A stretch of DNA of 64,000 nt from NCBI GenBank assembly GCA_041305345.1, contig JBFYLP010000005.1:109817-173816 (forward strand). Direction: 5' to 3'. Of this stretch, positions 1-57,697 are shown one piece after another (within the stretch, counting starts at the first letter, position 1; every line of letters begins with the position of its first letter). This DNA is from Candidatus Micrarchaeota archaeon (GTDB lineage Archaea > Micrarchaeota > Micrarchaeia > Norongarragalinales > SBBD01). Below the pieces are notes generated by a model, which was not told where the DNA came from, did no database searches, and was given only the letters and a program-made list of their open reading frames with translations. Position numbers and translations under genes: made by a program.

Positions 1-351
1 GTTGTCGAAATCGGTCTTGATGATTGAGAGGGGCGCTTTGGCGCCCGCCTTCCTTAAGTTCTTTTGCAAGAGCTCGTTGATCTTCCATTTAGTGAACACG
101 CCCGTAAGCTTGTCGATTTCCGCATTCTCGCGCACCCTGCCCGCACGCGCGCCCATTATATACCCCCCGACAACCGGAAGCAGGCTCAGGCCGATTCCCG
201 CGATTTTCTCCCTTGTGCTCACCGGCAGGTGGCCCCATTTCCTCGCAAACCATTTTCCCCCGGCCAAGACCCAGCTCCTCCTGGCATCGGTAAAGCGCCG
301 TTTTTCCCCTTGGGATGCGAAATATTCCAAAAGATTCCATTTCATGAACAT
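1..351 (-). CDS. Partial (runs off window) membrane-associated GGDEF-like (diguanylate cyclase-fold) protein
   Basis: Manual translation from ATG 351: MFMKWNLLEY...IAGIGLSLLPVVGGYIMGA (hydrophobic)...EIDKLTGVFTKWKINELLQKNL...PLSIIKTDFDN. This matches the start of GGDEF domains (D.LTG..N.......L...PLS....D.D.FK). Not in the ORF track; the GGDEF motif itself would lie outside the window. Confidence 0.6.
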   Translation of the reverse strand, partial: MFMKWNLLEYFASQGEKRRFTDARRSWVLAGGKWFARKWGHLPVSTREKIAGIGLSLLPVVGGYIMGARAGRVRENAEIDKLTGVFTKWKINELLQKNLRKAGAKAPLSIIKTDFDN

Positions 352-439
352 CCTTGCGTTCCCGAGGCATAAAAGGCTTCCGTTGCGTTGAGGGGCAAGG
401 TATTTAATTCTGCTAGCGCAGTTTAATACCGGTGTGAAC

Positions 440-1114: not shown

Positions 1115-1179
1115 GCAAGTCATTTAGCACAAAGCCTTTCAACTCCCACATATCATTTACTCCAAAGACCACAAGCGTT

Positions 1180-3606
1180 CTAATCCTGGGTGCCGCTAAT
1201 GAATTCGGACACCTGCTGCACAATCTGCGCATATGAAAGCTCCATCTGCTCCCAAACATTCACCACATTGAAAAGGCTGCCAATGCCTGTTGCGGTCTCA
1301 TTCCCCGTCAGGTAATTGAAACCCCAAGCCTGGTTCCCAAGTGTCGCAACTTCGTCAAAACTCCCAAAGGAGTGCCCGCCTTGCTGATCAACAAGGTAAA
1401 CCTTCTGGTCGGCTTGGATCGCAGAATCCGGAATAGCGCTGCGTATTCCCTCCAGGATGGCCGCCCTCCCAGTGGATTCATTAACGGATTTCTGCACCAG
1501 GGCAATCCGGACAGTGAGGGAGTGGTTCAAATATACCAAAACCGATTCCGGGAAATAGTCGGGATCCCTAGCTGCGGTGAAATTGTGCGGCGCATAGGTC
1601 ACGTTGACGGTCTTGTTGCCAATGAATTCGGTCACCAGGACGGGGTTCGTGATGCCATCAACCGCTTCAAGGTTCAGGTATTCCGGGAATGACGAGGAAG
1701 AGTTGGTGATGTTCACCTTTGCGCCGGATACGAGGCTGCTTGCCTCATCGGTTACGTTGACTGCTGCATAATGCCTTACCCTCGCCTCGGAAAGCCCGGA
1801 GTAGGAGATGTTGGAAACAACCGCGCTTGAAAAGTTCACGAAGGTGAAATTCGATCCCACGAGGAACGCGATCCTAGGGTTGGTGGAATTCACGTACATC
1901 TCGTCAATGGCGCAGCTCTCGCCCGAAACCCTATAAAGGCCCTTCCGAAGGTTAACGTATTGGTTTGCCGTGAAGTTGAGGTTTTTCGTCTGGGAATCCC
2001 CATAATACACCTCAAATGACGGGTCCAGGCTGATGTTTGCAATCGTATTCCTGATGAACGATAAATTGGTAACCGTGCCCGAAAAGGAGAAGAGCGCCTG
2101 TGAATCCGTGCCATAGGTGCCGACAAACGCATTGTCGTTGAATGCCAAGTCCCTGGTTGTTGTCAGGAAGGCATAGTGGTACTGGCTGAAGTTCTCAAAG
2201 GAATTGTTGCTGAATTGCGAATTGTTCACGTTTTGCAGCCAGAGGATGTTGATATTCGTATTGGGCGCTGCACCGTATTTCACCACGTAGTTCTTCACCA
2301 GCAGGTCCTTCGATTGGTGAAAATAGAAAATCTCGTTGCTTACGTTGTTGATTGGCGAATTGGCGCCATCAAAAACGATTTTCTCCGATGCATAAACCCT
2401 GAAAAAATACTCGAATTCCGGTTTTTGCGGGTCATATGAGAAGCTCGTGTTCCTGAAGCTCAGGCGCGAGGAATTGAATATGTTGAAATGGTGCCTGTTA
2501 TCGTCGTATGTATCCGAAAAATTGGAGGAATTCACGCCATTGAGGTAAAGGCCGTACTGGTAACCGACATTGGAGGCGGAAATGCTGGTGATGTTGGAGC
2601 AGATGAAGTCCTCAATGGATGAATTTGTGGAATTGTAAAAATACGCGCCAAACGCCGTGCTGCCTTGGACCAACGATCTCGAATAGATGGAGTTGGCGAC
2701 TAGGTTTCTCGCGTGCACCTGCGATGACGACTCGACCTTAAGGCCGTATGTGAGCACGGATGCGACAGCGTACCCGAACTGCTCCGATACGTCGATACCC
2801 TCCAGCTCCACCTCACGGGAACCGCTGACCTTCACCCCGGTGTTGAAGTTCTTGATTTTGCAATCCCGGATGGTCACATTCCTCCTGTTCGCAATCGTGA
2901 TCCCAACGCTGCCCGGAGCGCGCGAGCCGCTGATGATGAACCCGTTGCAGTCCAGCGTGACGTTATCCGCAAGCACATATATGCAGCTTGATGCTGCAGA
3001 AATGCTCTGGTTCAGCTCATACACCTGGTTTGGGGATGCGAGGTTCCCGCAGGCGGAAGTGGTGTTCGGGTCCAGGATTGCCGGCTGTGCGCTTCCGCCG
3101 GAGAGTGTGAGGTTCCACGTTCTCTCAAATGAGTTTGGCATTTCCCAGTAGATGTCAAACCACCTCCTTTCCGGGCTTAGGGAAAGCGAAGCAGGCAAGG
3201 GCCTTGGATCGACGAATCTTACATTCCTAATGGTAACAGGAGAATGGCGGCAAATCGTTGCATTTAGCAATTCATCAAAAATACAATCCATTTGAAGCAC
3301 GGTTTCATCGAAATAGGCCGGGCCGACTTCCATTATTGCAAGATTCCGCGTTCCCGTTGAATCAGATAGAGCTGGCTGCATCACATACTCACTCAGAATG
3401 GGCCGGCCTGCTGCCATTGAGATTCCTACATAATTGTGGCATTTGGCATACTCGTCCGAGCCTGCCGGGGCTAAATCGCAATAATGCAAGTCCTCGGAGG
3501 TAATATCAATGCCATTTGTCAGGATAGTTTTGGCCCCGGATGATGGCAACGAAAACAAAAGGCACAATAACGCCAGCAATACGGTGCTCGAACCCGTCTT
3601 CCTCAT
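1180..3606 (-). CDS. Secreted right-handed parallel beta-helix (NosD/CASH-like) surface protein
   Basis: Signal peptide MRKTGSSTVLLALLCLLFSLPSSG at ATG 3606; CIYVLADNVTLDCNG...GI...NVTI..C.I.NF..G beta-helix signature; many N-x-S/T sequons. Confidence 0.75.
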   Translation of the reverse strand: MRKTGSSTVLLALLCLLFSLPSSGAKTILTNGIDITSEDLHYCDLAPAGSDEYAKCHNYVGISMAAGRPILSEYVMQPALSDSTGTRNLAIMEVGPAYFDETVLQMDCIFDELLNATICRHSPVTIRNVRFVDPRPLPASLSLSPERRWFDIYWEMPNSFERTWNLTLSGGSAQPAILDPNTTSACGNLASPNQVYELNQSISAASSCIYVLADNVTLDCNGFIISGSRAPGSVGITIANRRNVTIRDCKIKNFNTGVKVSGSREVELEGIDVSEQFGYAVASVLTYGLKVESSSQVHARNLVANSIYSRSLVQGSTAFGAYFYNSTNSSIEDFICSNITSISASNVGYQYGLYLNGVNSSNFSDTYDDNRHHFNIFNSSRLSFRNTSFSYDPQKPEFEYFFRVYASEKIVFDGANSPINNVSNEIFYFHQSKDLLVKNYVVKYGAAPNTNINILWLQNVNNSQFSNNSFENFSQYHYAFLTTTRDLAFNDNAFVGTYGTDSQALFSFSGTVTNLSFIRNTIANISLDPSFEVYYGDSQTKNLNFTANQYVNLRKGLYRVSGESCAIDEMYVNSTNPRIAFLVGSNFTFVNFSSAVVSNISYSGLSEARVRHYAAVNVTDEASSLVSGAKVNITNSSSSFPEYLNLEAVDGITNPVLVTEFIGNKTVNVTYAPHNFTAARDPDYFPESVLVYLNHSLTVRIALVQKSVNESTGRAAILEGIRSAIPDSAIQADQKVYLVDQQGGHSFGSFDEVATLGNQAWGFNYLTGNETATGIGSLFNVVNVWEQMELSYAQIVQQVSEFISGTQD

Positions 3607-3734
3607 TCCGGCCTCACTCCTATCCCCTGTTGAATGCGACCGGCAAACCAGCCGATCCTTAAACCCGCAAGCCTTATGGAGCCCCTTTTTTAATAACCCT
3701 CCGAACGCCCACCAGACCGCTCTCCGAATCCCTT

Positions 3735-4490
3735 TCCTTTCCAGTGTAAAGATACCTTGATTTCGCATCGTAGAGCGGTTCGCCGAAGGGTTTGTAATTG
3801 GTGTCCTCGACCACCGCGCCAGATTCATTCGTAACTAAGGTAGTGCTCCCAAGATGGTCTGGATGATAGAAATACTTCTTGCCATCGGGGTCTTTCCTCG
3901 CGATAAGCTGGGAATCGGCGTAATAGTAGATTGTGTCGAAGGTGCCCGTCGCATTTATTACTCGGAGGAAATTCGGGTTGAAGTAGAAGACGGTTTCGTT
4001 CTTGATTCTGTCGGATTTCCTGATGCGGTTGCCATCCGAATCGTAGAGGTATTCGGAAATGACGGTTCCAGTCGAATTTCCATCTCGGATTTTCGAGAGC
4101 TGATTAAACGAATTATACTCGTAATAGGATTGCGAATCCTGAACCATATTCCCGTTGGCATCGTAAATGAACGATTGGGTGAGGTTGGAAGCATTACGGG
4201 AGGTGTTTTGCCCGATTGCGAGGGATTGCTGGCTCCAGAGAGTGAGATTTCCTGCTCTTGCGGTTATTTTGTAATCTGTTGAATTCGAGTAGTTGTATGC
4301 GAGGTAGACGAAAATGCTCTCTTGGGAGGTGAGGTTGATGGGGATTGTTGAGTTGATTTGCGAAACTCCCGTGAAGAACGTGAAATTGATGTTCGAAATG
4401 TTGAAATTCGCGTTGTTCCTGATGTGGAAGCCGAAGATTTTGAGGGTGGCGTTTGTGGAGAGGAGGCGGAGGTCTTTGAGTTCGGAGAGG
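3735..4490 (-). pseudogene. Silent Rhs cassette 2: Ig-like insert plus Rhs core, truncated at DSESGL with no toxin tip
   Basis: Highly similar to 9400-10130 of the main Rhs gene; reading frame preceded by TAA with no start; homology stops just before MYYGARYY. Confidence 0.85.
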
Positions 4491-4509
4491 TGTCGGCAGA
4501 GTTTTTAGC

Positions 4510-4715
4510 ATTGGTTGCTAAAAAAAGAAAAAAAAGGGCTCTGTGCAGTTGTCAAAAGCGATAAAAAAAGAACTGCGTCTTCGCGTCTGGGCGAAGGGCT
4601 GACATCGACTTATGCGGAAAGACCGCATGTTGAAAAAAATTAAAATTTCAATGCATCGAATAACTTTGACAAAATACCTTTTTTGGCCCATTTTGTCAGT
4701 TACCGAAGGATTATC
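4510..4715 (-). repeat. Inter-cassette repeat copy A (decayed Imm 3' tail plus three-hairpin spacer)
   Basis: Near-identical to 6803-7008; inverted repeats gcagtt/aactgc (4545/4571), cttcgc/gcgaag (4579/4591), atgcgg/ccgcat (4612/4623). Confidence 0.9.
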
Positions 4716-4763
4716 ATCCACCTTTCCCAATAAATGTTCATTGATCAATAATTTTCATTTTTT

Positions 4764-5228
4764 TCACTTTTTGGTATTTTTTAATTTTTCAATTACGTCT
4801 AAAGCAATTCGATCATCTGGATATTTTTTTAAGACATCTTTTGCAATTTTTAATGCTTCACTTTCGGAAATCAACCTCTCTGGTAAATTATAGAAAAAAA
4901 GTAAAAACTGTTTGTGACCAATATTTTTTGGGGATAAATTAACTGCTCGCCTTGCATGAAATAAGGCTAAATTATACGCGTTTGGTAAATAATTAATTCC
5001 ATTGGAAAGTAGGACGGATGCAATCGAATGATATTCTGCATTTTCATTTTCATTTATTAAAAACCAAATGAAACCATATGGTGCAATACTCTTTCCATGA
5101 TAAGTTAGCTTGAAAAGAATTTCGTCTAATTTTTTAATTGTTAAATGTTTAACCAGTATTTTTGCTTTATAAAAATCTCCTGACAAGATATATTTTTCTA
5201 ATTTTGACTCCTCGGCATATATTTTCAT
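4764..5228 (-). CDS. Putative cognate immunity protein (helical/TPR-like) of the Ntox35-like tip
   Basis: ATGA overlap with the toxin stop; AT-rich; YHSIASVLL...AYNLALFHARRAVNLSP helical repeat. Confidence 0.7.
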   Translation of the reverse strand: MKIYAEESKLEKYILSGDFYKAKILVKHLTIKKLDEILFKLTYHGKSIAPYGFIWFLINENENAEYHSIASVLLSNGINYLPNAYNLALFHARRAVNLSPKNIGHKQFLLFFYNLPERLISESEALKIAKDVLKKYPDDRIALDVIEKLKNTKK

Positions 5229-6802
5229 TTTTTATTCACCCATGCATTTGAAATTGTTCTTCCACTTCCTTCTTTTTTCCAAGTCACAGTTACAACTTCC
5301 CTATTAATTTTTAATGTTGACTGATAAACTCCCTTTCCCGATTGATAAGAGCTAATCGTCCCTTCTTTTAATGTCTTATCGATAACTCCACTAACATCGC
5401 CCCAATCTTTAGGATCGCTAACAACTTTCCCCCAATCGTGTTTATCTGCCAGTATATGTGCTTGATGCGCTTGGTCGATTGCCTTAACTTCGGGTAATAA
5501 TTCTTTAACTGCTACTTTTCCGATATTTTTAGCCTCATTGGCTCTCTCCGCCTTCTTAAAATCACCTCCAGCTTCTAACGCCTTCTTCGCATCATTAAGG
5601 TCATCCGTATGCAATGCAGCCTTAGCGACAACGCCTCCACCGCCAATTAAAGGCGCCGCAGTTGATATTATATCGGCGCCAAAGCAGACCCAATTTTCCA
5701 AATGACTGAAATAACCCGCGGGATCATTTTTGATGTCGTTTATATCTTGCGCCAAGCTCAAATAATCCATGAAATCGGTAGGGGAAGCCCACTTTCCGGT
5801 TGGATCGACATACTTGTAGGGATTATTGGTTACATATGAGTAGCGGTTCATTGATTGCGGGGCATATTCGTACTCCTGCAATTCAGTATCGGGTTGAATG
5901 AATTTCCCAATCACCGGACTATAATATCTCGCCCCATAATACATCAAACCAGATTCCGAATCCCTTTCCTTCCCAGTGTAAAGATAACGCGATTTCGCAT
6001 CGTACAATGGCTCGCCGAAGGGTTTGTAATTGGTGTCCTCAACAACAGCACCACTTTCATTCGTAACGAGAGTCGTGCTTCCCAGATGGTCGGGATGGTA
6101 AAAGTATTTCTTGCCGTCGGGGTCTTTGCGGGCGATCAATTGGGAATCGGCGTAATAGTAGATTGTGTCGAAGGTTCCCGTCGTGTTTATGACTCTCAAG
6201 AAATTCTGATTGATGTAGAGGATGGTTTCGTTCTTGATTTTATCGGATTTCCTGATTCGGTTGCCGTCTGAATCATATAAATATTCGGAGATGATTGCGC
6301 CACTCGAATTTCCCTCTCTGATTCTGCTCATCTGGTTGAAGGAATTGTACTCATAATATGATTGCGAATCCTGAACCATATTCCCGTTGGCATCGTAAAT
6401 GAACGATTGGGTGAGGTTGGAGGCGTTCCGAGAGGTGTTTTGCCCTATTGCGAGGGATTGCTGGCTCCAGAGCGTTAGGTTCGATGCGCGAGCGGTTAAT
6501 TTGTAATCGGTTGAGTTAGAGTAGTTGTAGGCGAGGTAGACGAAAATCGACTCTTGGGAGGTGAGATTGATTGAAATTGTGGAGTTGATTTGTGATATTC
6601 CTGTAAAGAATGTGAAATTGATGTTCGAGATGTTGTAATTCGCGTTGTTCCTGATGTGGAAGCCGAATATTTTCAAAGTGCCATTTGTTGAGAGTAATCG
6701 TAGATTATTTACCTCGATAATTGGGCCTGTTTGGGAGATGGTTTTTTGAGCATGGGCGGGGGAGTTTTGGTAGGTGTAATTGCTGATTGTGTTGTTGTTC
6801 GT
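5225..6802 (-). pseudogene. Silent/orphan Rhs cassette 1: Rhs core plus alternative C-terminal toxin (Ntox35-like predicted RNase)
   Basis: Core YYGARYY...NPYKYVDPTG then a distinct tip HILADKHDWGKVV...ISNAWV. The only upstream ATG (6832) lies in the poly-T tract of the repeat (MPFFFFF). Confidence 0.8.
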
Positions 6803-7008
6803 ATTGGTTGCGAAAAAAAAGAAAAAAGGCATGTGCAGTTGTCAAAAGCGAGAAAAAAAGAACTGCGTCTTCGCGTCTGGGCGAAGGACTGACATCGACT
6901 TATGCGGAATGACCGCATTTTGAAAAAAATTATAATTTCAATGCATCGGATAACTTAGATAAAAACCCTTTTTTTGCCCATTTGGTTGGTTTACCAAAAG
7001 TATAATCT
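6803..7008 (-). repeat. Inter-cassette repeat copy B
   Basis: Direct repeat of 4510-4715; includes the last ~22 codons of the 6930-7562 gene. Confidence 0.9.
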
Positions 7009-7562
7009 GAAATCTTCCTAAACCAGATATTTTTCAAATTAGCCTTTTCCATAATTTGCTTGAGTTTAGATGTAACGATGAATCTTGTCTTAGAGTCAAC
7101 TGAAAAGAAATATTCGCCATTCCAATGATGTAAATCAAAATAAAATCCCTTCATGGCTGAAAGATATTTCTTCCCTTCCGAGTCTATCGAGTATTCAGGT
7201 TCACACTCGCCGATTAATAATGGTAAGGGATCAGATTTTGTTTCCATATAATAATATTTTGCCAGTATACTATTATAATTTACTTGGATTGGCCAGACAT
7301 GAAAATCACCAATATTGTTGTTCTTAAGTAAGGAGACAATTTTCTTAGAGTATACTTGTGTTGCCCACGAAGTAGCTAAAATATCCCCATACGTCGTTCC
7401 TGTTTGCGGAATAAGAGTAATTTTACCTCCTTTAACATATTCATCAAAATTTCTTTTTTGATTTAACTCTATATTTGAGATTTCTCCAGTTAACCAAAAA
7501 TATTTAGTTGCCCAACCATGCTCTAGAATATAAAAATCAGAATATCTCTGTTCAAGATTCAT
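6930..7562 (-). CDS. Orphan immunity protein, Imm11/DUF1629-like
   Basis: GDILAT...YSKKIVSLL and GFYFDLHHWNGEYFF...FIVTSKLKQIMEKANLKNIWF pattern; GGTGA SD; AT-rich; located in the toxin locus. Confidence 0.6.
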   Translation of the reverse strand: MNLEQRYSDFYILEHGWATKYFWLTGEISNIELNQKRNFDEYVKGGKITLIPQTGTTYGDILATSWATQVYSKKIVSLLKNNNIGDFHVWPIQVNYNSILAKYYYMETKSDPLPLLIGECEPEYSIDSEGKKYLSAMKGFYFDLHHWNGEYFFSVDSKTRFIVTSKLKQIMEKANLKNIWFRKISDYTFGKPTKWAKKGFLSKLSDALKL

Positions 7563-7645
7563 ATAGTATCACCCGCCATAATAACCATAGTAAATATCAA
7601 AATTATATTTTGAAGACATCAAATCTTTCCTCATGGTTTCACTTT

Positions 7646-8515
7646 TTAATATATTGATTCGGGAGCTCCCTCAATTCTTAATGGTTTCAGGTACTCGTTA
7701 AGTTTTTTCAAGTCATTTACATACCGAGTAGTTCCAAAATAGTTGTTAAGATTGATTTCGTAATTGGTTAGTTGTAGATAGGCTCCATTCGAGACTGATT
7801 TGACGATGGCTACGGGGGCTTCATTCTTGACTTTCTCAATCCCCCCAAGCCGGGCTAAATGATGTTTATTGAGGAAATTGCCCCAATAGGCTTTAAAGAT
7901 ATTTTTACAAACCCGATTTTGGTTTATTTGGTAAAATCTGACCTCGTCATTAAGTTTCTTTTCATAAGGGGTTTCTACAAGTCCTCGATCAATATCGAAA
8001 TAGGTGATTGGGGAGAGTGTCGCTTGCCTCATATAATCCGCTAAATTATTATGAAAAGTTATAAACCCGTATTCGAAGTTTTTTAAAAGCGATTCACTTA
8101 CTATTTCATTAATCTTAAAAGCTAAATTTGCGTCTATAAAATTAATACTTAAATTTTGTGGTTTTTCAAATTTTGGAGATAAGTCAAGATGAAAACTTAA
8201 TCCAATATTTTGGTTTTTTTCCTTAAATTGATTTTTTGATCGATTTTCAATAATAATAGAATAAAATCGGTCATCCTTTATTTTATTGATTATCTTGCCA
8301 ATATTCCTTGCGGATATTTTTTCAAATCGTTCGGCTGTTGCTGTTTCCTTTTTCATAAACGAATAAGTATCGAACGGATTCTCGGCATATTTATTAATTG
8401 TTTTTACTAGGGTCAATAATTCAAGAGGGGCTTTACGAACTTCTATATGAAAATATACTGTGAACCCATATTGTAATGACTTCCAATTTTCATGTTTTAA
8501 TTCTTTTGAATTCAT
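7646..8515 (-). CDS. Putative cognate immunity protein of the REase-fold toxin
   Basis: Immediately downstream of the Rhs stop; AGGTGA SD before ATG 8515; YWGNFL...LGGIEKV...GAYLQLT resembles immunity proteins of PD-(D/E)xK toxins; AT-rich. Confidence 0.65.
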   Translation of the reverse strand: MNSKELKHENWKSLQYGFTVYFHIEVRKAPLELLTLVKTINKYAENPFDTYSFMKKETATAERFEKISARNIGKIINKIKDDRFYSIIIENRSKNQFKEKNQNIGLSFHLDLSPKFEKPQNLSINFIDANLAFKINEIVSESLLKNFEYGFITFHNNLADYMRQATLSPITYFDIDRGLVETPYEKKLNDEVRFYQINQNRVCKNIFKAYWGNFLNKHHLARLGGIEKVKNEAPVAIVKSVSNGAYLQLTNYEINLNNYFGTTRYVNDLKKLNEYLKPLRIEGAPESIY

Positions 8516-8524
8516 ATATTTCAC

Positions 8525-11500
8525 CTACCTATATGGAACAATTTCAAAGCTCCACGCTCCGGATTTACCCCAATCAGCAGGTTTGCCATATTTACTCCAG
8601 TCGGCATTTTTTGCTGCATCAATATAGCCACTAACCTGATCCCTCGTGCTTTTTAAATTTACACGCCCCTCAGGTTTTAATTCATAAATTACCCTATTAT
8701 TTAGATCTATCGCATCTGGTCTAATGCGATATCCGGGAATAGCTTTATTGGTTATCATTCCTTTTTCTCCCATTATATTGTAGAATTTTTGATGTTCGGC
8801 CATACCTTTTACTATGGCTTCTCGAGTGTTTGGATTTGCTGCTCCTCTTAAAGTTGACTTGGAACCACTATTAATCTCGCCTTCGGTAACGCTCATTGCA
8901 TTGCCAGAACCGCTTAAGGCCTTCCCAACCCCATGCCCAACCCCTCCCAGGACAATATCAAATCCTATGCCACCCGGGTCAAGCAGATTCTGGGTTAAAT
9001 CCTGCCCGGTTAAAGCATTTTCTGCCACTTGGGCCGCTCTGCCGGAGGCTACGCTAGAGCCAACTGTTGCTAATAGAGATGCACATCCTGTTAATCCTGC
9101 AACGCCCCCTGCTACACCACCAACAACTGCCGCTCGGCCTACATCTGCTAAATTTACCTGTCCGGTTGCCATATATTGTGTGCCGGCAGAAATTGCAGCC
9201 CCCAAGGCGCCTCCAACCACGGCGCCAATCACGGCCGCAGGCAAAGTAATGAAATTCCCGCTTTCATCCGTGAATTTGTACGGATTGTTTTGAACGTACG
9301 AGTATCTGTTCAAGGATTGCGGTGCGTAGGGGAATTGGATCATTGGATCTGGTTGGTAGAATCTTCCAACGTTTGGGCTATAGTAACGGGCGCCATAATA
9401 CATCAAACCCGATTCAGAATCTTGCTCCTTCCCAGTGTAAAGGAAACGGGATTTCGCATCGTAAAGTGGTTCACCGAAGGGCTTGTAATTGGTGTCCTCC
9501 ACTACTGCTCCGCTTTCATTCGTAACCAATGTGGTTGATCCTAAATGGTCGGGATGGTAAAAGTATTTCTTGCCGTCGGGGTCTTTCCTCGCAATTAGTT
9601 GCGAATCGGTATAATAGTAAATCGTGTCGTAAGTGCCAGTCGCATTTATAACTCGGAGGAAATTCGGATTTATGTAGAAGACGGTTTCGTTCTTGATTCT
9701 GTCGGATTTCCTGATGCGGTTGCCGTCTGAATCGTAGAGGTATTCGGAAATGACGGTTCCAGTCGAATTTCCATCTCGGATTTTCGAGAGCTGATTAAAC
9801 GAATTATACTCGTAATAGGATTGCGAATCCTGAACCATATTTCCATTGGCATCGTAGAGGAATGATTGGGTGAGGTTGGAGGCGTTTCGGGAGGTGTTTT
9901 GCCCGATTGCGAGGGATTGCTGGCTAATAAAAGTGAGGTTTCCTGCTCTTGCGATGATCTTGTATTCCGACGAGTTCGAGTAATTGTAAGCGAGGTAAAC
10001 GAGGATGCTCTCTTGGGAAGAAAGGTTGATTGGGATTGTGGAGTTGATTTGGGAAACTCCCGTGAAGAAAGTGAAGTTGATGTTGCTGATGTTCTGGTTG
10101 CCATTGTTCTTGATGTGGAAGCCGAAAACCTTCAAAGTTGCGTTTGTGGAGAGGAGGCGGAGGTTCTCAACGGAAATGATGGGGCCGGTTTGACTGATGG
10201 AATTGGGGGCGTGGACTGGGGAGTTTTGGTAGGTGTAATTGCTTATTGTGTTTCCATTGTTTTCGGTGATTGTTAGGATATTTCCGATTGAGGAGTAGGA
10301 GTAGTTGAGAAGGTAGTCTTCCTTCTGGGGGGAATTATCGGTCCTGCGAGCGTAAATTAAACGGTTCAATTTGTCGTAGTCCATCGTTTGAAGTATCGAG
10401 TTGTAGGTGTCTTGAATCTGCATAATGTTGGAAACGTTGTCGTATTGGTAATTGAGGTCTTGGAGGTTGGAAGTGTAAATTCTGGTGAGCCTTGAAGTTG
10501 GGAAGTCGTAAGTGAAGGAGGTGTTGAGGTCGTTGCTGTAAGCTCGGAGAACGGGTTTGTTGAAGGCATTGTGCTGTGTGAGGTTGAGGATGCCTTGAAT
10601 TGTTGAGAGCTGGTTTTGCGAGGAGTAGTTGTAGGTGATGGTTTCGGAGTTGGGCAAGGTTTCGGTTCTGAGCCTATCGAGGGAATCGTAGGTGTAATTC
10701 GTGCTGGAAGTGTTGTGGCCTATAGTCTTGAGTTCGGAGGTTTTGCGGTAGCGGGAGTCGTAGGAGAAATTGAAAGAGAAATTAACTGCTGAAATGGATG
10801 AAAGGGTTCCGTTGAGCTGGCGGTCGTAGAGGAAGCTGATGGATTCGGTTGTGGAGTTTATACGGATGAGGCGGTTGAGATCGTCGTATTGGAGGGTTAT
10901 GGCTGTGCTGCGGTTGTCCTTCTGGGTGATGAGGTTGCCGGCTGCATCATAAGAGTAGTTCCAGATGCCTAAATCCGGGTCGATTAATGAGGTTTTCCTT
11001 CCGAGAGTGTCATAGGAGAATTTGAAGGTGTTTTGCTCGTTGTCGGTGATGTTGAGGAGCTGGGAGGCTGCGTCGTAGGAGTATTTGGTGACGTATGGAG
11101 TGACTGAGTTGAATTCGTGGATTTCGGTGATTTGACCGTAAGCGTCCTGAACCTGCTTGATTTGGTTGCCGTTCTCGTCCGTGGTTGTGGTGTTCCATCT
11201 GCTGTAATTGAACGATTTGGTGGTGTTGTCGGGGTTCCTGATGGAAAGGATGCGGCTTAGAGGGTCGTAGGTGATGTTGGAGAAGGGGATGGAGGCGTTG
11301 GGGGAGGAGTAGTTTTGGGAAGGAGTGGCAAAGTAGGGGTTGGATTTTCGCTGGACGCGGAATGAGGAGTCGTAGAAAGTGTCCTGGATGATGGATTGGT
11401 TGTTTTCGGCTTCCGAGCGGGTCTGGATTAGGTTGCCACGGCCGTCATAGAAGGAGATGGAATCATAAGTGTTATTTGTGGCATTTTCCTCGCGCTGAAC

Positions 11501-14500
11501 GACTTTTATTTTTTCAGGCGCGATGCCGTCGAATTCGTACTCATAGAGGGTTGAGGGGTAGATGGGGGAGTCGTAGGGCTTGATGATTTTGATGAGGCGG
11601 CTGAAATTGTCGTAGGAGTAGTTGGTGGTAAAGCCGTTGGAATCCGTTGTTGAGAGGAGGTTGCCGGTGCCTAAATCGTAGAGGGAGGTTGTGGTATGGT
11701 TGAGGGCGTTTATTGTTTTTTCGGGGAAGGTGAATGTTGAATCCGTTATGTTGTAAATGAATTTTGTGGTGCGGTTGAGGGGGTCGGTGGTGTTGATGAG
11801 GTTGCCGTAGGAATCGTAGGAGTAGTAAGTGAATGGGTTGGTGCCGCCTTCTAGCGTTTCTTCCTTTTTAGTAAGGAGGCCTTTGTGGGGCGCTGCACCA
11901 TATGAAAGGCCGTCGTAATAGTATTTGGTCCTGCGTAGAATCTGGCTGTCAAAACCTATCAGATGATGCGAGTATGGCTCATCCATTATCCACTCGCTCG
12001 TGTTGTAAGCGTACTGGTAGATTTCGTATTTCTCATCTCCGGAAACGCCGTTCTCGCCAAAATTCGAGATTGAGAGGGGGTTGCCGTAATCATCGTAGGA
12101 ATAGGTGGTGTTGGTGATTCTGGGGTTTGAGGAGGAGCCGTCAAAAGTGAAGGATGTTTCTCCTTGGAGATGGGTTGTGTAGTAGTTGTTTGAGAAATTG
12201 GTCGTGAAGTTGTATTCCTTTTTTAGGTAGGGGTTATTGGCTGCTTCATAGGTTTCGGTTCTGAATTCCATCCCCTTCCTGCCGGAATCCTGATGGAAAT
12301 AGTGGGTTGCCTTTGAACCGTCCGCATAAGTGATGTTTGCATTGGCAAAGCCCTTGAACTCACGATCTGGGTTGGACCACACGCCGCCGGAATAGGAATA
12401 ATTTGTGGTTGAGTTTATGTGTGCGGAGCCGTTCAGACTGTTGCTCAATGTGACCGAGGAGACGAGCCAGAGGTTGAAAGGGAGGTCTGAAAACGAGTCG
12501 TTGCCGGTGTTGTTGAGTTTTGTGGATTTGAGGTAGTCGACGCTGGTTTTACCGCCGAACTGGTTCACGGAATAATTGAGCAAATATGCTTTGCTTCCGT
12601 TGTTGATGTATGCTTTATTCGTGTTGCCGCCGCCGGCATTCGTGAAGGATTGCAGGATGTCTACTGATCCATCTCCATTCGCATCTGCAAGCCTGACTCC
12701 TAAATCACCCCTGCCGTCAATCGCGAACTCCATCGGGAAGGGAGCTAAACCATAGGAGGCTTCATAAACCCAGGCGGAGCCATTGTTGAGATATGCTTTA
12801 TTCGTGTTGCCGCCCCCATAATTCGTGAATGATTGGAGAACGTCTATAAGGCCATCGCCGTTGGCATCCTCAAGCCTCGTGCCTAGGTCGCCCCTTCCAT
12901 CGATGGCAAACTCTATTGGGAAGGGAGCTAAACCGTAGGATGCATCGTAGTTCCAAGCGGTGCCGTTGTTGAGAAAAACCTTATTCGTGTTGCCGCCGCC
13001 GGCATTCGTGAAGGATTGCAGGACATCGACGAGTCCGTCGCCGTTGGCATCTGCTAACCTGACGCCTAGGTCGCCCCTCCCATCAATTGCGAATTCGACC
13101 GGAAACGGGGCTAATCCCCAAGAGGATTGGTTGTTCCAGGCGGTGCCGTTGTTTATGTAAACGGTATTGGCGTTGCCGCCGCCGGCATTCGTGAAGGATT
13201 GCAGGACATCGACGAGTCCGTCGCCGTTGGCATCTGCTAACCTGACGCCTAGTTCGCCCCTCCCATCAATTGCGAATTCAACTGGGAAGGGGGAAGGACC
13301 ATACGAGGTTTGGTTGTTCCAGGCAGTGCCATTGTTTAGGTAAATCTGGTTTGTGTTGGCTCCCAGCGAATTGGTGTATGATTGCAGGAGGTCTATGGCC
13401 CCATCGCCGTTGGCATCCGCTAACCTTATCCCTAAATCGCCCCTCCCATCGATTGCGAATTCGACTGGGAATGGGGTTGGGCCATAGGAAGCATCGTAAA
13501 CCCAACCGGTTCCGTTGTTGAGGAAAACTTTGTTCGTGTTGCCGCCCAGGGCGTTTGTATAGGATTGGAGAACATCAATAAGGCCGTCACCGTTTGCATC
13601 CGCCAACCTTACTCCTAGATCGCTTCTGTTCTCAATTGCGAATTCTACTGGGAAAGGAGAAAGACCATAGTAGGTTTCGTAAGTCCAACCCGTTCCAGCA
13701 CCAATAAAGTAAAATTTGATTGGAGCCAGTGATTGGTTTTCATTATTCCCGAATTCGGTAATATTGGCAAGGAAGGAACGGGGGCTGAAGCTTACATTGG
13801 CGTAAGCAAGACCATATTTTCTGACGAGTCGGTCGTTTGCATTTATTTGTATCTCCTTCAGCCGCCTGGAAAGCCGCACGATGTTGGAGGCATCGAATAC
13901 CTTCCAGATGTCCGGGCGGTCGGAGGTTTCATAGATGAACTGCACATCGCGCTTTCTGTCGTTGTTGAATTGGATGGAAATGGGGTAGGTCGAGCCCAAA
14001 TCGTTCGGGAAGGGATTTTCGGAATAATTGTGGAAAATGGAGTTGTTGTGGGCATCCGTGATGGAATCAAGGTACCAGCGGGTGGCGAACAAACCGGTGT
14101 GTGAGACCATTTCGGAGCTGTTCTGCGAGCCGAAAACATAGGTTTTGCCGTCCTTGGAGCGCACGCGCCAGTAAGAGCCCATCTCATTGCTTGAGGCAGT
14201 AAGATTTTCAATTGAGAGGAAGGTTTCGATCTTTGTGTGGAAGCGGTTGTCCGCATTAGAAAAAACGAGCTCGAACTCGGAACCGCCAAGCACCAGCTTG
14301 AAGGAATCGTCCGAGAAATTGTATAAAGTGTGATTGAAAGCCCTCTCGATGTAACTTAGCGAGATTTCCCATCCGGCGCCCAATACCGTAGGCAATGAGT
14401 TGGTTTTCTGGTGGTTGTAGAAGAGGGTAACTGAAGGCTGCAAACCGTTTGTGCCCGGGGGAAGCTTGATTTGGTGATTATAAGTGAACGCGCCCGTGAA

Positions 14501-14647
14501 TAAGGAAGTCTTGAACGAATCATCCTGCTTGAAATCCGGTGGCGCAACGAATTCCGGCCGGGGCTGGCCTGGCGGATCGATTGCGGCAACCGGGAATGGA
14601 ATAAGGGAAAATGCAAGCAGGAAAAGCAGCAAGCAAGATTTGCCCAT
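8525..14647 (-). CDS. Large Rhs/YD-repeat polymorphic toxin: signal peptide, SpvB/TcB-like N-terminus, FG-GAP-like repeats, YD repeats, Rhs core, Tox-REase-9-like C-terminal nuclease
   Basis: MGKSCLLLFLLAFSLIPFPVAA signal; TGAFTY...LPPGTNGLQPSVTLFYN...LGAGW (SpvB-like); DANGDG repeats; YSYD..GN repeats; HPDHLGS...YTGKEQDSESGLMYYGARYY...NPYKFTDESG; tip IRPDAID...IYELKP...Q..GY. Confidence 0.92.
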   Translation of the reverse strand: MGKSCLLLFLLAFSLIPFPVAAIDPPGQPRPEFVAPPDFKQDDSFKTSLFTGAFTYNHQIKLPPGTNGLQPSVTLFYNHQKTNSLPTVLGAGWEISLSYIERAFNHTLYNFSDDSFKLVLGGSEFELVFSNADNRFHTKIETFLSIENLTASSNEMGSYWRVRSKDGKTYVFGSQNSSEMVSHTGLFATRWYLDSITDAHNNSIFHNYSENPFPNDLGSTYPISIQFNNDRKRDVQFIYETSDRPDIWKVFDASNIVRLSRRLKEIQINANDRLVRKYGLAYANVSFSPRSFLANITEFGNNENQSLAPIKFYFIGAGTGWTYETYYGLSPFPVEFAIENRSDLGVRLADANGDGLIDVLQSYTNALGGNTNKVFLNNGTGWVYDASYGPTPFPVEFAIDGRGDLGIRLADANGDGAIDLLQSYTNSLGANTNQIYLNNGTAWNNQTSYGPSPFPVEFAIDGRGELGVRLADANGDGLVDVLQSFTNAGGGNANTVYINNGTAWNNQSSWGLAPFPVEFAIDGRGDLGVRLADANGDGLVDVLQSFTNAGGGNTNKVFLNNGTAWNYDASYGLAPFPIEFAIDGRGDLGTRLEDANGDGLIDVLQSFTNYGGGNTNKAYLNNGSAWVYEASYGLAPFPMEFAIDGRGDLGVRLADANGDGSVDILQSFTNAGGGNTNKAYINNGSKAYLLNYSVNQFGGKTSVDYLKSTKLNNTGNDSFSDLPFNLWLVSSVTLSNSLNGSAHINSTTNYSYSGGVWSNPDREFKGFANANITYADGSKATHYFHQDSGRKGMEFRTETYEAANNPYLKKEYNFTTNFSNNYYTTHLQGETSFTFDGSSSNPRITNTTYSYDDYGNPLSISNFGENGVSGDEKYEIYQYAYNTSEWIMDEPYSHHLIGFDSQILRRTKYYYDGLSYGAAPHKGLLTKKEETLEGGTNPFTYYSYDSYGNLINTTDPLNRTTKFIYNITDSTFTFPEKTINALNHTTTSLYDLGTGNLLSTTDSNGFTTNYSYDNFSRLIKIIKPYDSPIYPSTLYEYEFDGIAPEKIKVVQREENATNNTYDSISFYDGRGNLIQTRSEAENNQSIIQDTFYDSSFRVQRKSNPYFATPSQNYSSPNASIPFSNITYDPLSRILSIRNPDNTTKSFNYSRWNTTTTDENGNQIKQVQDAYGQITEIHEFNSVTPYVTKYSYDAASQLLNITDNEQNTFKFSYDTLGRKTSLIDPDLGIWNYSYDAAGNLITQKDNRSTAITLQYDDLNRLIRINSTTESISFLYDRQLNGTLSSISAVNFSFNFSYDSRYRKTSELKTIGHNTSSTNYTYDSLDRLRTETLPNSETITYNYSSQNQLSTIQGILNLTQHNAFNKPVLRAYSNDLNTSFTYDFPTSRLTRIYTSNLQDLNYQYDNVSNIMQIQDTYNSILQTMDYDKLNRLIYARRTDNSPQKEDYLLNYSYSSIGNILTITENNGNTISNYTYQNSPVHAPNSISQTGPIISVENLRLLSTNATLKVFGFHIKNNGNQNISNINFTFFTGVSQINSTIPINLSSQESILVYLAYNYSNSSEYKIIARAGNLTFISQQSLAIGQNTSRNASNLTQSFLYDANGNMVQDSQSYYEYNSFNQLSKIRDGNSTGTVISEYLYDSDGNRIRKSDRIKNETVFYINPNFLRVINATGTYDTIYYYTDSQLIARKDPDGKKYFYHPDHLGSTTLVTNESGAVVEDTNYKPFGEPLYDAKSRFLYTGKEQDSESGLMYYGARYYSPNVGRFYQPDPMIQFPYAPQSLNRYSYVQNNPYKFTDESGNFITLPAAVIGAVVGGALGAAISAGTQYMATGQVNLADVGRAAVVGGVAGGVAGLTGCASLLATVGSSVASGRAAQVAENALTGQDLTQNLLDPGGIGFDIVLGGVGHGVGKALSGSGNAMSVTEGEINSGSKSTLRGAANPNTREAIVKGMAEHQKFYNIMGEKGMITNKAIPGYRIRPDAIDLNNRVIYELKPEGRVNLKSTRDQVSGYIDAAKNADWSKYGKPADWGKSGAWSFEIVPYR
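12575..13669 (-). repeat. Six tandem 183-bp (61-aa) FG-GAP/VCBS-like coding repeats
   Basis: Unit YGLAPFPVEFAIDGRGDLGVRLADANGDGLVDVLQSFTNAGGGNTNKVFLNNGTAWNYDAS repeated six times with high identity. Confidence 0.92.
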
Positions 14648-14718
14648 CAACCCAAGCGCCCCGAAAGGTAAGATTTCAAGTAATATTTAAAGCAGTTGGA
14701 ACGGACCCTCTTTGCCGA

Positions 14719-14844
14719 TCAGAACCTATAATCCCAAGGCGTCTTCGCCGGCTTCTTCCTTCCCTGGAAGCCAAGAATCCAAACGAGTATCACTACGCCA
14801 ACGGCAATCAGGACGGCTGTTTGGGAATCGATGAAATCGGCCAT
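14719..14844 (-). CDS. 41-aa single-TM microprotein
   Basis: MADFIDSQTAVLIAVGVVILVWILGFQGRKKPAKTPWDYRF; TM followed by basic residues; TTTAAATA box and GGGA SD upstream; below the ORF-track cutoff. Confidence 0.5.
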   Translation of the reverse strand: MADFIDSQTAVLIAVGVVILVWILGFQGRKKPAKTPWDYRF

Positions 14845-14895
14845 ATCCCTACTATTCTCACTAACTATTTAAACCCGAAGCGTGTGGATTTAATC

Positions 14896-16020
14896 ATGAA
14901 CCAGGAACGGGACAGGAGGCCGGAGGAACCCAAGCTTCTTGCCGCATATTCCGGGGGGATCCCGCAGTGGGTACTGATCAGCATCATCGTGATAATCCTG
15001 GTTATCGGCGCACTATTATATTTCCAATCGAGGAAGATTGACATCGTTCCCACGGCAACACCTACTGTGCGGCCGGCAATAAGCCCGACACCCTCCGCAA
15101 CTGTGGCAACTCCAACAAAGGCTCCAACTCCAACCGATGAGCCGATACCCACAATCAAGCAAGTTGTGAAAACCGCCTGCGGCGCCGTTTCCCAAAGCAT
15201 CACGCTCCAAAACGATCTCAAGGCCCAGGCGACGTGCTTTACCGTGATAAGCGAAGGCGTGACCATCGATTGCAACGGCTTTGTGATTGATGGGGGCGGG
15301 GTTGAGAACTCGAGTGCGATATATTCCGAATTTGCAAACACAGCAATCAAGAACTGCAACATCGGCGGCTTCGAGGTCGGCGTATGGCTCAAGAAGGCCG
15401 ATGGGAGCAGCGTGCTTTATTCGACGATCGCAAACAACATCGGCGGGATCGTGATCGAAAAATCTAAGGGTGTACGCGCAAAGGGAAACAGGGTTTATAA
15501 CAGCACCGAGGTCGCCATAATGCTCTCGGCAGTTGAGGATAGCACGATAGAGGATAATTTTGCGGACGGCGGCAAGAAATACGGAATCCAGATGGTCGCC
15601 TCGAACGGCAATGCCGTCAGGAGAAATGTCGTTTATGGAATGAACATTGGCCTCCAGCTATCGCAGTCAAGACGGAACGAGGTTGAGGCGAACAACATCA
15701 GCTTCAATTTCGCCGGGATGAAGATGACGAGCGGATCAACGGACAACACGCTGACCCGAAACAACATCGTGGACAACAAGGCCATCGGATTGCACATATT
15801 GGATTCCAATGGCAACCGCCTCATTGGAAACACAATGACGGGAAACGAATACGGCATCCACCTTCTTGACTCTCGGAACACCCTGCAGGACAATTACGTC
15901 TGCGGCAATGTGATCGAGGACATCGAATGCGAGATTGCGCAGGAAAATGCCACCGGAAACACCTGCTTCCTTAGGGCGATGACCTGCGGATTCGATTGCG
16001 CAAGGCGCTGCCCTACTTGA
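14896..16020 (+). CDS. Membrane-anchored NosD/CASH parallel beta-helix protein with Pro/Thr linker
   Basis: TM WVLISIIVIILVIGALLYF, PT-rich linker, CFTVISEGVTIDCNG, repeated N.I..N..GI.L..S. Confidence 0.85.
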   Translation: MNQERDRRPEEPKLLAAYSGGIPQWVLISIIVIILVIGALLYFQSRKIDIVPTATPTVRPAISPTPSATVATPTKAPTPTDEPIPTIKQVVKTACGAVSQSITLQNDLKAQATCFTVISEGVTIDCNGFVIDGGGVENSSAIYSEFANTAIKNCNIGGFEVGVWLKKADGSSVLYSTIANNIGGIVIEKSKGVRAKGNRVYNSTEVAIMLSAVEDSTIEDNFADGGKKYGIQMVASNGNAVRRNVVYGMNIGLQLSQSRRNEVEANNISFNFAGMKMTSGSTDNTLTRNNIVDNKAIGLHILDSNGNRLIGNTMTGNEYGIHLLDSRNTLQDNYVCGNVIEDIECEIAQENATGNTCFLRAMTCGFDCARRCPT

Positions 16021-16287: not shown

Positions 16288-17118
16288 ATGAGAAAACTAT
16301 ATACAAGGAAATTACACATACCCAAGGAAGTTCGGGAGTTCATTGCCGGCAGCGATGTCACTACGGCTATGCAGCTAAGCAAGCGTTTTGGGTTTTCAGA
16401 AATTACCGCAATGAATTACCTGAGCCGGGCGAAGAAATTGGGGCTGGGAACAAGGGTGGCCCCAAAGATGCTAATGAAGGCAAGGCACGACTATCCCGAA
16501 TTTTCAAAAGAAAAAAAACGCGTTTATGATGCGATAAGGAAAGACATGCCATTTGTGCCCATTACCATCTGGTCTACCTTTGACCTTAACCGGTATGCGC
16601 ATAACATTATAATGAAGGGAGTGATTTTTGTTGAAACTGAAGGATTTGCAGTTGAAACCGTAAAAGATAAACTTCTATCGAATGGCGTCAAGGCAATAAG
16701 TTTCAACAGCAAGGCTGACCTCCGCAATATTTTTGATCTTATGGAAACACCCGTATTGGTGATGGGAAGAAAGGACAAGGCGGGCACGAATGCAGACAAG
16801 AAAGATAAGAATTTGCATCTGCCTTCATTTGAAAGGATATTTGTAGATGTTTATTTCCTGAATACCCGAAAATACCTCTCGCTGCCGCTTTCCGAGCTTG
16901 GGAATGTACTTGAGAATATATCCGCATTCGGGTACTCACTCAACTATTCCCTGCTGAATTGGGTTGCAATGCGAAGAAATGTCCTTGCGGAAATCGAAAC
17001 CGCGTTATACTTGTTCAAGAAGAAAAGCAGCCGCTTTGCGTCAATTCCTGAAAAATTTGCAAGGAAAAGGAAGTTAAGCAAGAAGCAGTTAAATTCCGTA
17101 ATGCAAATGGTTGGTTAA
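16288..17118 (+). CDS. AbiEi-like type IV antitoxin / transcriptional regulator (N-terminal HTH)
   Basis: N-terminal wHTH-like segment, PSFERIFVDVY motif; directly upstream of an AbiEii-like gene. Confidence 0.65.
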   Translation: MRKLYTRKLHIPKEVREFIAGSDVTTAMQLSKRFGFSEITAMNYLSRAKKLGLGTRVAPKMLMKARHDYPEFSKEKKRVYDAIRKDMPFVPITIWSTFDLNRYAHNIIMKGVIFVETEGFAVETVKDKLLSNGVKAISFNSKADLRNIFDLMETPVLVMGRKDKAGTNADKKDKNLHLPSFERIFVDVYFLNTRKYLSLPLSELGNVLENISAFGYSLNYSLLNWVAMRRNVLAEIETALYLFKKKSSRFASIPEKFARKRKLSKKQLNSVMQMVG

Positions 17119-17119
17119 G

Positions 17120-57689: not shown

Positions 57690-57697
57690 TTATGAAT

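Follow-up and report, generated by a model that had tools for sequence, protein, structure and literature searches.

Organization of the Rhs locus

We analyzed 64,000 nt of the genome of a Candidatus Micrarchaeota archaeon (contig JBFYLP010000005.1, positions 109,817–173,816, GenBank assembly GCA_041305345.1; hereafter the 64-kb window, to which all coordinates refer). Over positions 3,674–14,647, the minus strand carries in order a main Rhs gene, the candidate immunity gene imm1, an Imm11-like gene, a core fragment with a toxin tip of its own (cassette 2), the candidate immunity gene imm2, and a further core fragment (cassette 3); all features of the locus described below lie on this strand. 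An earlier note, written from the letters of this window, had described an Rhs polymorphic toxin followed by a cassette array, and all of the parts that it listed were located on the minus strand where it had placed them. The locus is very probably a chromosomal Rhs polymorphic toxin of a Micrarchaeota archaeon, of the TcdB/TcaC type, with spare cassettes that would act as recombination substrates.

In the open reading frame (ORF) map, the main Rhs gene (8525–14647) encodes 2,040 aa from an ATG at 14647 to a stop codon at 8525–8527 and has the organization of a TcB–TcC-type fusion. A TATA-box-like sequence, TTTAAATA (14684–14691), read 44 nt upstream of the ATG, is a candidate archaeal promoter; the transcript is predicted to begin ~18 nt ahead of 14647. 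The N-terminus has a hydrophobic h-region (aa 5–20) and a V-A-A motif, and a Sec-type signal peptide is predicted at aa 1–22 (MGKSCLLLFLLAFSLIPFPVAA then ID; 14582–14647; Kyte–Doolittle hydrophobicity >2 at aa 1–20). This call is heuristic, based on hydrophobicity, the V-A-A motif, and conservation in homologues, not on SignalP; an equivalent signal-like segment is present in 104 of 115 Rhs homologues that start with M.

The domains that the earlier note had named (SpvB, TcdB_toxin_midN, RHS_repeat, Tox-REase-9, and Ntox35) are all matched by hidden Markov models at or above their cut-offs, and its description of a TcB–TcC-fused, Sec-type Rhs polymorphic toxin is supported by this predicted domain content. 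Downstream of the signal peptide are an SpvB-like N-terminal domain (14015–14497; Pfam PF03534, 45.7 bits, above cut-off), six FG-GAP/calcium-loop repeats of 61 aa that are predicted to form a beta-propeller (12597–13628), and a TcdB_toxin_midN domain (12278–12703; PF12256, 71.4 bits, above cut-off). The propeller repeats are a direct-repeat family (D1) with a tandem period of 183 nt and 71–77% identity, which translate into six PFPxEFAI...DANGDG units; Pfam FG-GAP_3 scores 53.4 bits, above its cut-off, and EF-hand-like loops are matched as well. An RHS/YD-repeat shell (9488–12250; RHS_repeat, 101.8 bits; TIGR01643, YD_repeat_2x, 85.9 bits) with an immunoglobulin (Ig)-like insertion near aa 1490–1560 leads into the Rhs-associated core domain (aa 1721–1797; 9257–9487; NCBIfam TIGR03696, Rhs_assc_core, 72.8 bits against a cut-off of 32.5). 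The conserved core ends in PYKFTDESG (aa 1789–1797), which corresponds to PxxxxDxxG, the autoproteolysis motif described for TcC proteins (PMC7861908). The motif is intact, and cleavage at this position is predicted.

Two local features of the shell were also recorded. The Ig-like insertion (approximately 9950–10160) has a weak Glyco_hydro_49N Ig-like match, is rich in N-x-S/T, and lies near the start of the homology to the cassettes. The same segment is present at the corresponding part of cassettes 2 and 3, and it is apparently not conserved in an orthologue from another Micrarchaeota genome (P0002), the alignment to which begins only past the segment. Over the RHS-repeat part, plus-strand GC skew at 9800–11800 is very strong (0.4–0.57) and the coding strand is C-rich, probably reflecting the N/Y/T/S-rich codons of the repeats.

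A predicted nuclease tip and its candidate immunity gene

Residues 1798–2040 of the main Rhs protein form tip 1, of about 243 aa, in two parts. The first half (aa 1798–1920; 8888–9256) is a Gly/Ala-rich pre-toxin region, hydrophobic in windowed analysis and of a "glycine-zipper" kind. The second (8528–8887) is a Tox-REase-9 nuclease domain of the PD-(D/E)xK type (PF15650) with a marginal score (27.4 bits against a Pfam cut-off of 27.3). The translation contains the GxxxH, D, and ELKP motifs that PMC3482391 gives for this family, and with the Tox-REase-9 domain of a short Rhs homologue (P0131) the nuclease shares 35% identity in a 122-aa alignment. A 328-aa alignment of the main protein with the orthologue P0002 (64% identity) begins in the core and extends across the first ~125 tip residues, stopping short of the terminal toxin domain, which differs from tip 1. 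The glycine-zipper module also precedes an Ntox35 toxin in a contig of another Micrarchaeota archaeon (L099), and the Ntox35 toxin of the window has a different pre-toxin region. Because the same module precedes different toxins in the window and in L099, pre-toxin and toxin modules appear to be shuffled independently, comparable to CdiA-CT, in which entry and nuclease domains are shuffled independently. Glycine zippers are likewise contained in the tip of Tse5. Tse5 is presented as a pore-forming Rhs tip in a structural study (PMC10684867).

The candidate cognate immunity gene imm1 (7646–8515; 289 aa, without a signal peptide) starts 10 nt past the Rhs stop codon. Only about 66 distant relatives are found among 1.84 billion representatives. 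Its match to Pfam TsiV/DUF3396 (PF11876) is 16 bits, below the threshold of 25; among 44 aligned relatives, 18 match TsiV (best E 1.5e-6) and none match any other family. Thus, imm1 is likely a distant relative of TsiV, with family membership that falls short of the cut-off. VRR-NUC, too, is a nuclease with the restriction-endonuclease fold. It is as "type VI immunity for VRR-NUC" that TsiV is listed in Pfam. The closest relative of imm1 (P0122) is located in a bacterial Rhs/EndoU/VgrG island. The TsiV link and the relative in an Rhs island fit an immunity role for imm1 without proving it. Sequence searches of the PDB with the tip 1 nuclease, imm1, and an imm1 family profile returned nothing meaningful, and a single-sequence AlphaFold2 model of imm1 has low confidence (predicted local distance difference test, pLDDT, of 34). 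A 326-aa gene upstream of P0122 was considered as a relative of tip 1 and rejected, having no similarity. In a related locus (L101), the immunity gene beside another Tox-REase-9 cassette is DUF4304 and is not imm1-like. PADLOC gave no defense-system match for any of the three immunity genes of the array.

Cassette 2 carries an Ntox35 tip and a conserved partner

Cassette 2 (5225–6832) is a 535-aa ORF that joins a 0.84-kb core fragment and the Rhs_assc_core domain to a pre-toxin region of its own and an Ntox35 tip. Its core homology spans 5945–6787 and TIGR03696 scores 73.9 bits; homology to the main gene begins at ...NTISNYTYQNSP and fades past the core domain. Ntox35, a BECR-fold RNase family (PF15534), is matched over the full profile (1–78) at 35.2 bits against a cut-off of 23.6; the domain occupies aa 452–532 (5237–5479), and its H...KH motif is present as "HQAHILADKHDW". 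The ATG of cassette 2 lies inside a T-run, giving a predicted N-terminus (MPFFFFFATN...) without a signal peptide. Unlike the main gene, neither cassette 2 nor cassette 3 has a TATA-like motif at promoter distance upstream.

The gene that follows, imm2 (4764–5228; 154 aa), overlaps the stop codon of cassette 2 by 4 nt (ATGA) and is a candidate Ntox35 immunity gene. Its product is all-alpha and resembles tetratricopeptide repeat (TPR) proteins, with nine helices in an AlphaFold2 model (pLDDT 69); compared with the PDB, the model yields only generic TPR or helical-repeat matches (E ≥ 0.05), none significant. In L099, the Ntox35 cassette is followed by a 153-aa gene to which imm2 is 50% identical. 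That cassette and cassette 2 are 51% identical over a 280-aa alignment, in which the Ntox35 end is best conserved. Since the Ntox35/imm2 pair is conserved in L099, it provides the best available evidence for cognate immunity at this locus. The small genes after each tip are closely coupled to it and lack signal peptides, and they are predicted to neutralize the tips.

A putative orphan immunity gene and repeated leaders

Between imm1 and cassette 2 is a 210-aa gene (6930–7562) that resembles Imm11 (PF07791; 19.5 bits against a cut-off of 22.1; E 6e-4) over positions 36–194 of the 194-position profile. No HNH/AHH-type toxin that would match it is present in the locus, and for this reason "orphan immunity" is a fair label. 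Each of the two cassettes is preceded by a 179-nt leader repeat (copy 1, 6813–6991; copy 2, 4523–4701; 88% identical to each other), which comprises the last ~20 codons and the stop codon of the Imm11-like gene, a run of seven T, two small hairpins, and T-runs. Copy 2 accordingly includes a remnant of the Imm11-like C-terminus (4646–4696), which is 88% identical to aa 193–209 of the Imm11-like protein. The 64-kb window has no further copies of any part of the array. Oligo-T runs act as termination signals in archaea. RNA folding of the leader hairpins gave a z-score of only −1.8, and a scan for sigma-70 promoters and intrinsic terminators, which is uninformative for an archaeon, did not flag them.

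Divergent core copies and a trace of recombination

Cassette 3 (3674–4504) consists of 277 open codons of core without a start codon. It lacks a tip and an immunity gene because its homology stops right after ...DSESGL, before the YYGARYY motif. In tblastn, it has 92% amino-acid identity to aa 1493–1749 of the main protein. The three core copies are colinear and in direct orientation (main, 9404–10162; cassette 2, 5945–6703; cassette 3, 3713–4471), with 80–85% DNA identity over 759 aligned nt and 87–93% identity in protein. Pairwise, synonymous divergence (dS) is 0.75–1.15 and the ratio of nonsynonymous to synonymous divergence (dN/dS) is about 0.08, a pattern that indicates divergence under purifying selection. 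At these values, the copies are not pseudogenes that decayed after duplication in place. Such values would be expected if the copies began as parts of functional genes in separate lineages and came together only afterwards.

One segment departs from this background. Across a 171-nt gene-conversion tract (main, 9674–9844; cassette 3, 3983–4153), the main gene and cassette 3 have at most three differences and share an identical run of 113 nt, against a background divergence of 15–24%; cassette 2 differs at 30–31 positions across the same span. The tract shows that, in this lineage, the main gene and cassette 3 have recombined. Complete switching of tips from the array would be a further, inferred outcome of such exchange.

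With core-only 3' fragments in direct orientation, an alternative tip and immunity gene, and no export-competent N-terminus, the locus is organized as an orphan-cassette array. The earlier note had called the array silent. The array itself is present; silence is a matter of inference. Most likely, neither cassette is produced as a toxin that can be exported, because both lack a signal peptide and a recognizable promoter and cassette 3 has no start codon. These features are indications of silence and not proof of it.

Native scaffold, foreign tips, and an archaeal host

Base composition separates the scaffold from the modules that it carries. The G+C content at third codon positions (GC3) of the Rhs core is 0.63, within the range of other chromosomal genes in the window (0.59–0.77). 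Corresponding values are 0.41 for the Gly-rich half of tip 1, 0.29 for its nuclease half, 0.29 for both imm1 and the Imm11-like gene, 0.35 for tip 2, and 0.21 for imm2. Overall GC content is 0.28–0.32 in the immunity genes, 0.40–0.42 in the toxin domains, and 0.49 in the core. The claim that tips and immunity genes are more AT-rich than the core holds for the immunity genes and toxin domains and needs a nuance for the first half of tip 1, which has an overall GC content of 0.54, though its GC3 of 0.41 is well under the 0.63 of the core; the high overall value is due to its richness in Gly and Ala. Judged from GC3 (0.21–0.41), tips and immunity genes look foreign and the scaffold looks native.

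Genes around the array identify the host. The S8e family is known only from archaea and eukaryotes, and the window encodes ribosomal protein S8e (62609–63016) as well as a DUF373 protein. PurA is 84% identical to that of a Micrarchaeota metagenome-assembled genome (MAG; JAZDKC01) and 73% identical to that of a Norongarragalinales MAG. A gene of the metallo-beta-lactamase (MBL) fold that flanks the array (434–1114) is 75% identical to that of another Micrarchaeota MAG, and its next-best matches are from Micrarchaeota and Iainarchaeum. The best homologue of the Rhs protein, P0002 (54%), is in JAZDKC01, the MAG with the best PurA match, where it lies beside archaeal-type genes. On these grounds, the assignment of the window to a DPANN-like host is borne out. 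The further proposal that the host is probably symbiotic is uncertain, because its closest named relatives, the Norongarragalinales, have been proposed to have a host-independent lifestyle (PMC12892359) and the window carries purE (encoding aminoimidazole ribonucleotide carboxylase), purC, and purA within 55833–58999. The presence of these three genes in a DPANN window also fits the metabolically richer Micrarchaeota lineages of that study.

Related loci in DPANN archaea

At E ≤ 1e-10, the main Rhs protein has 641 homologues. In the protein index, the longest contig that carries the protein itself is 263 kb; an exact-sequence look-up in the contig index gave no record of it. The best scaffold matches come from MAGs of Micrarchaeota, Nanoarchaeota, Pacearchaeota, Woesearchaeota, and Altiarchaeota, ahead of those from the candidate phyla radiation (CPR) and other bacteria, and several other contigs have similar Rhs loci in archaeal gene contexts. 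Cassette arrays are also present in L099 (Micrarchaeota) and in two further loci (L100 and L101), and three others (L012, L016, and L017) have no downstream core fragment. Additional core matches in L018 were considered as an array and rejected, as they look like an interrupted main gene. Tips differ on homologous scaffolds, with those of P0002, L099, and L102 differing from the Tox-REase-9 tip in the window. From the sequences collected, the TcB–TcC-fused Rhs scaffold and similar arrays appear to be common in DPANN MAGs, though undescribed: we found no literature with both "DPANN" and "Rhs" that describes such loci, in a search that did not extend to the 2019 survey of archaeal polymorphic toxins.

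The array of L099 (positions 1–6200 of a Micrarchaeota contig from Hainich groundwater) is a sister to that of the window. It begins with the end of a main Rhs gene with a Gly/Ser-rich tip, a TPR/transmembrane gene, and the Ntox35 cassette, in which a hydrophobic N-terminus is joined to no more than ~60 aa of core; next come the imm2 homologue, a core fragment of 723 aa that breaks off at ...TNESGAI, and housekeeping genes. The two arrays both terminate in a tip-less, 3'-truncated piece of core, which might be a distal homology arm for importing modules.

A second form of related gene is short. Members of a "mini-Rhs" family (P0124–P0242, e.g., P0131 and P0136) are ~420–470 aa and consist of a signal peptide, the last ~180 aa of the core, and a variable toxin (Tox-REase-9, Ntox35, ribonuclease PF00545, and others). 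Their sources include Woesearchaeota, Pacearchaeota, Nanoarchaeota, Paceibacterota, and Cryomorphaceae. Of 100 short homologues from DPANN and CPR bins, 73 possess a signal-like N-terminus of their own, and for this reason short pieces of core and toxin elsewhere look like autonomous secreted proteins. In L101, the main gene (1,642 aa) has neither the C-terminal part of the shell nor a tip. The mini-Rhs proteins may act as plug-toxin subunits that can be exchanged on a common shell.

Comparison with known toxin systems

Pfam searches of ORFs in the window found no TcA domain (VRP1, TcA_TcB_BD, or neuraminidase-like), VgrG, PAAR, or Phage_base_V; they covered ORFs of at least 120 aa and shorter ones in part, within the window and not the genome outside it. 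This agrees with the claim that no type VI secretion system (T6SS), PAAR, or TcA gene is nearby. TcA, VgrG, and PAAR were also not found in the loci of relatives. Because none of the three was found in the ORFs and loci searched, the system is taken to be neither a Tc ABC toxin nor a T6SS effector.

The closest description is the TcdB/TcaC-type class of Zhang et al. (2012; PMC3482391), defined by a signal peptide, SpvB, an integrin-like beta-propeller, RHS, a variable toxin, and downstream immunity. The protein of the window has this domain architecture, followed by a candidate immunity gene, and Tox-REase-9 and Ntox35 are from the same catalogue. The table of that study gives Euryarchaeota as the only archaeal taxon for the class and does not name DPANN; in that catalogue, Imm54 is the partner of Tox-REase-9, and Ntox35 has no immunity family assigned to it. 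Both the architecture and the two toxin families were thus catalogued in 2012 (PMC3482391), and the locus is unsurprising to a specialist in polymorphic toxins. It departs from the catalogue in its candidate immunity partners, which are TsiV-like for the Tox-REase-9 tip and a new protein resembling TPR proteins for Ntox35.

Orphan C-terminal cassettes of bacterial Rhs genes were reportedly described by Jackson in 2009, Poole in 2011, and Koskiniemi in 2014 from E. coli, Salmonella, Dickeya, and Serratia. Such cassettes are 3' core fragments with an AT-rich, foreign tip and immunity gene of their own, and as direct repeats they can recombine with the main gene. Here, likewise, a main gene is followed by core-only fragments, and cassette 2 has its own tip and candidate immunity gene. 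In contrast to the bacterial loci, which are linked to T6SS/PAAR or lack TcB, the protein here is a predicted Sec-exported TcB–TcC fusion of a single-membrane cell. A repeated leader with a remnant of an immunity gene ahead of each cassette is a further difference.

With the Tc BC cocoon (TcdB2–TccC3, YenB–YenC2), the protein shares the SpvB N-terminus, the beta-propeller, TcdB_midN, the RHS shell, and the aspartyl autoprotease motif, and natural B–C fusions are known (PMC7861908). It differs in having candidate immunity genes and, in the ORFs searched, no TcA in the window. Sequence searches of the PDB with the Rhs shell returned T6SS Rhs shells and teneurin-like proteins, to which the matches are stronger than to the Tc BC cocoon. 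Because immunity genes are present, prokaryotic rather than animal targets are favored.

A precedent for contact-dependent competition without T6SS or TcA is WapA of Bacillus subtilis, an Rhs/YD protein exported by Sec, which carries a nuclease tip, is encoded beside its immunity gene, and is anchored to the Gram-positive cell wall and has no SpvB/propeller part. Sec-type export, Rhs/YD repeats, a nuclease tip, and an adjacent immunity gene are common to both proteins, as predictions in the case of the window; the SpvB/propeller part is present in the window protein and not in WapA. Among DPANN archaea, the SPEARE surface proteins of Nanohaloarchaeota are reported to combine a region with a predicted likeness to the BC part of ABC toxins with a restriction-endonuclease-like domain (PMC6642349). 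Unlike the window protein, they are membrane-anchored, multidomain proteins of 4,000–8,500 aa, and the account of them drawn on here describes no Rhs tip, immunity gene, or cassettes (PMC6642349).

Proposed function and alternatives

We propose that the Rhs protein would be exported by Sec and fold outside the cell into a closed BC-like cocoon, within which the aspartyl autoprotease of the core domain would free the ~243-aa tip. On contact with a target cell, the tip would exit, and the glycine-zipper module would carry the nuclease over the target membrane without TcA; this module is our best guess for a delivery route to the target cytoplasm. Imm1 would protect the producer and its kin. Targets would be prokaryotes that resemble the producer, most simply rival Micrarchaeota. 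The cassettes would serve as recombination substrates for tip replacement and as carriers of additional immunity genes: a 3,459-nt direct-repeat exchange would leave the main core fused to tip 2 and imm2.

Several points weigh against this proposal. Expression, export, autocleavage, toxicity, and protection are predictions from sequence. For BC fusions that lack TcA no delivery partner is known, and the entry step is a guess. The Tox-REase-9 score of tip 1 sits exactly at the Pfam cut-off, and the scores of the Imm11-like gene (19.5 bits) and of imm1 against TsiV (16 bits) are under theirs. No switched allele is observable, since no near-identical strain was found in the sequence collections; a metagenome scan returned six relatives and none of that kind. 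In addition, cassette 2, which possesses an ATG, is annotated as a gene (P0123), and the short cassette-like genes of relatives often have signal peptides, so that a silent reserve would not be the sole use of such genes.

An account that overlaps with the proposal and differs only in the purpose of the cassettes is that the array is a fossil record, in which transferred tip/immunity modules displaced older C-termini and the leftovers are kept mainly for their immunity, with switching being rare or irrelevant. It would explain the foreign GC3 of tips and immunity genes (0.21–0.41), the Imm11-like orphan and the remnant of a second, both without a matching toxin, and the loss of the tip from cassette 3, and the dS (0.75–1.15) and dN/dS (0.08) of the cores fit divergence within functional genes of different lineages. 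However, the 171-nt conversion tract means that copies do recombine, and in cassette 2 the core domain is intact and both the autoproteolysis motif and the catalytic motifs are retained. We regard this account as plausible, if not the one we would favor. The ATG and gene call of cassette 2, the translational coupling of imm2, and the signal peptides in 73 of 100 short homologues elsewhere could also mean that cassette 2 and imm2 are expressed alone, either as an intracellular addiction module of the toxin–antitoxin kind or as a separate subunit for the shell. Yet the predicted N-terminus (MPFFFFFATN...) derives from a T-run and contains no signal peptide, no TATA-like box was found upstream, the leader has T-runs and hairpins, and the DNA is colinear with the main core in the manner of recombination cassettes, all of which make independent expression improbable.

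It is slightly more improbable still that the main protein is a device for adhesion or host interaction, akin to the BC-like part of SPEARE or to teneurins, and that its C-termini are not antagonistic toxins. The BC-toxin-like domain reported in SPEARE (PMC6642349), the teneurin-like proteins among the PDB matches, and the large surface proteins probably encoded nearby are in line with such a role. It would leave unexplained that each tip matches a toxin family with a score that reaches or exceeds the Pfam cut-off and keeps its catalytic motifs, that a small cytoplasmic gene follows each tip, and that the scaffold is conserved while tips vary between orthologues. Rhs systems are far better known from bacteria and the composition of tips and immunity genes is odd, which raises the question whether misassembly or contamination has placed bacterial DNA on an archaeal contig. 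But the GC3 of the Rhs core equals that of host genes, the gene on the left flank (0.4–1.1 kb) points to Micrarchaeota as do S8e, PurA, and DUF373 on the right, the best scaffold homologue shares its MAG with the best PurA match, and comparable loci occur in archaeal contexts on several contigs. These points make a contaminant or chimera of bacterial origin very unlikely.

A broader idea extends the proposed Rhs toxin to other lineages: DPANN, and perhaps CPR, may share a TcA-independent BC cocoon that combines glycine-zipper entry through the archaeal envelope with mini-Rhs plug-toxins for a shared shell. We consider this rather unlikely as a whole. If true, the cocoon would stand as the earliest known case of an Rhs weapon directed against archaea, and the mini-Rhs proteins, which number in the hundreds, would resemble several TcC subunits serving one TcB.

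Antagonism by archaea, and by DPANN especially, is poorly documented, and a source that cites Makarova 2019 refers to archaeal polymorphic toxins as predicted and not characterized (PMC8416519). The locus is a clean, apparently intact example, with two predicted toxin/immunity pairs, a trace of recombination, and a native scaffold. The wide occurrence of this scaffold in DPANN raises the question of how a cocoon is delivered without TcA and against whom, whether rival Micrarchaeota, hosts, or bacteria.

Neighboring genes

Scans of the 64-kb window for tRNA genes and Rfam families gave no match. On the downstream flank of the array, an 882-aa ORF (1180–3828) has a signal peptide and no Pfam match. 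On the other side of the locus, beside the Rhs gene, is a small defense island (16288–20905) with AbiEi (DUF6577), AbiEii, two unassigned small ORFs, and a Fic/SoFic-like gene; its GC3 of 0.49 is between those of host genes and toxin modules. Three minus-strand proteins of 2,594, 2,171, and 2,075 aa (28477–36261, 40219–46734, and 47723–53950, respectively) take up about a third of the window. Their only recognizable domains are CarboxypepD_reg, Big_1, or SpaA-like/Ig-like, and a role as large surface proteins or adhesins is probable. On the plus strand (14611–16020), next to the Rhs gene and in divergent orientation, lies a gene for a membrane-anchored protein of the NosD/parallel-beta-helix type. 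A NosD/beta-helix gene is also found directly upstream of the Rhs homologue P0008 in L017 (7459–9270), and the association with Rhs could be a conserved linkage.

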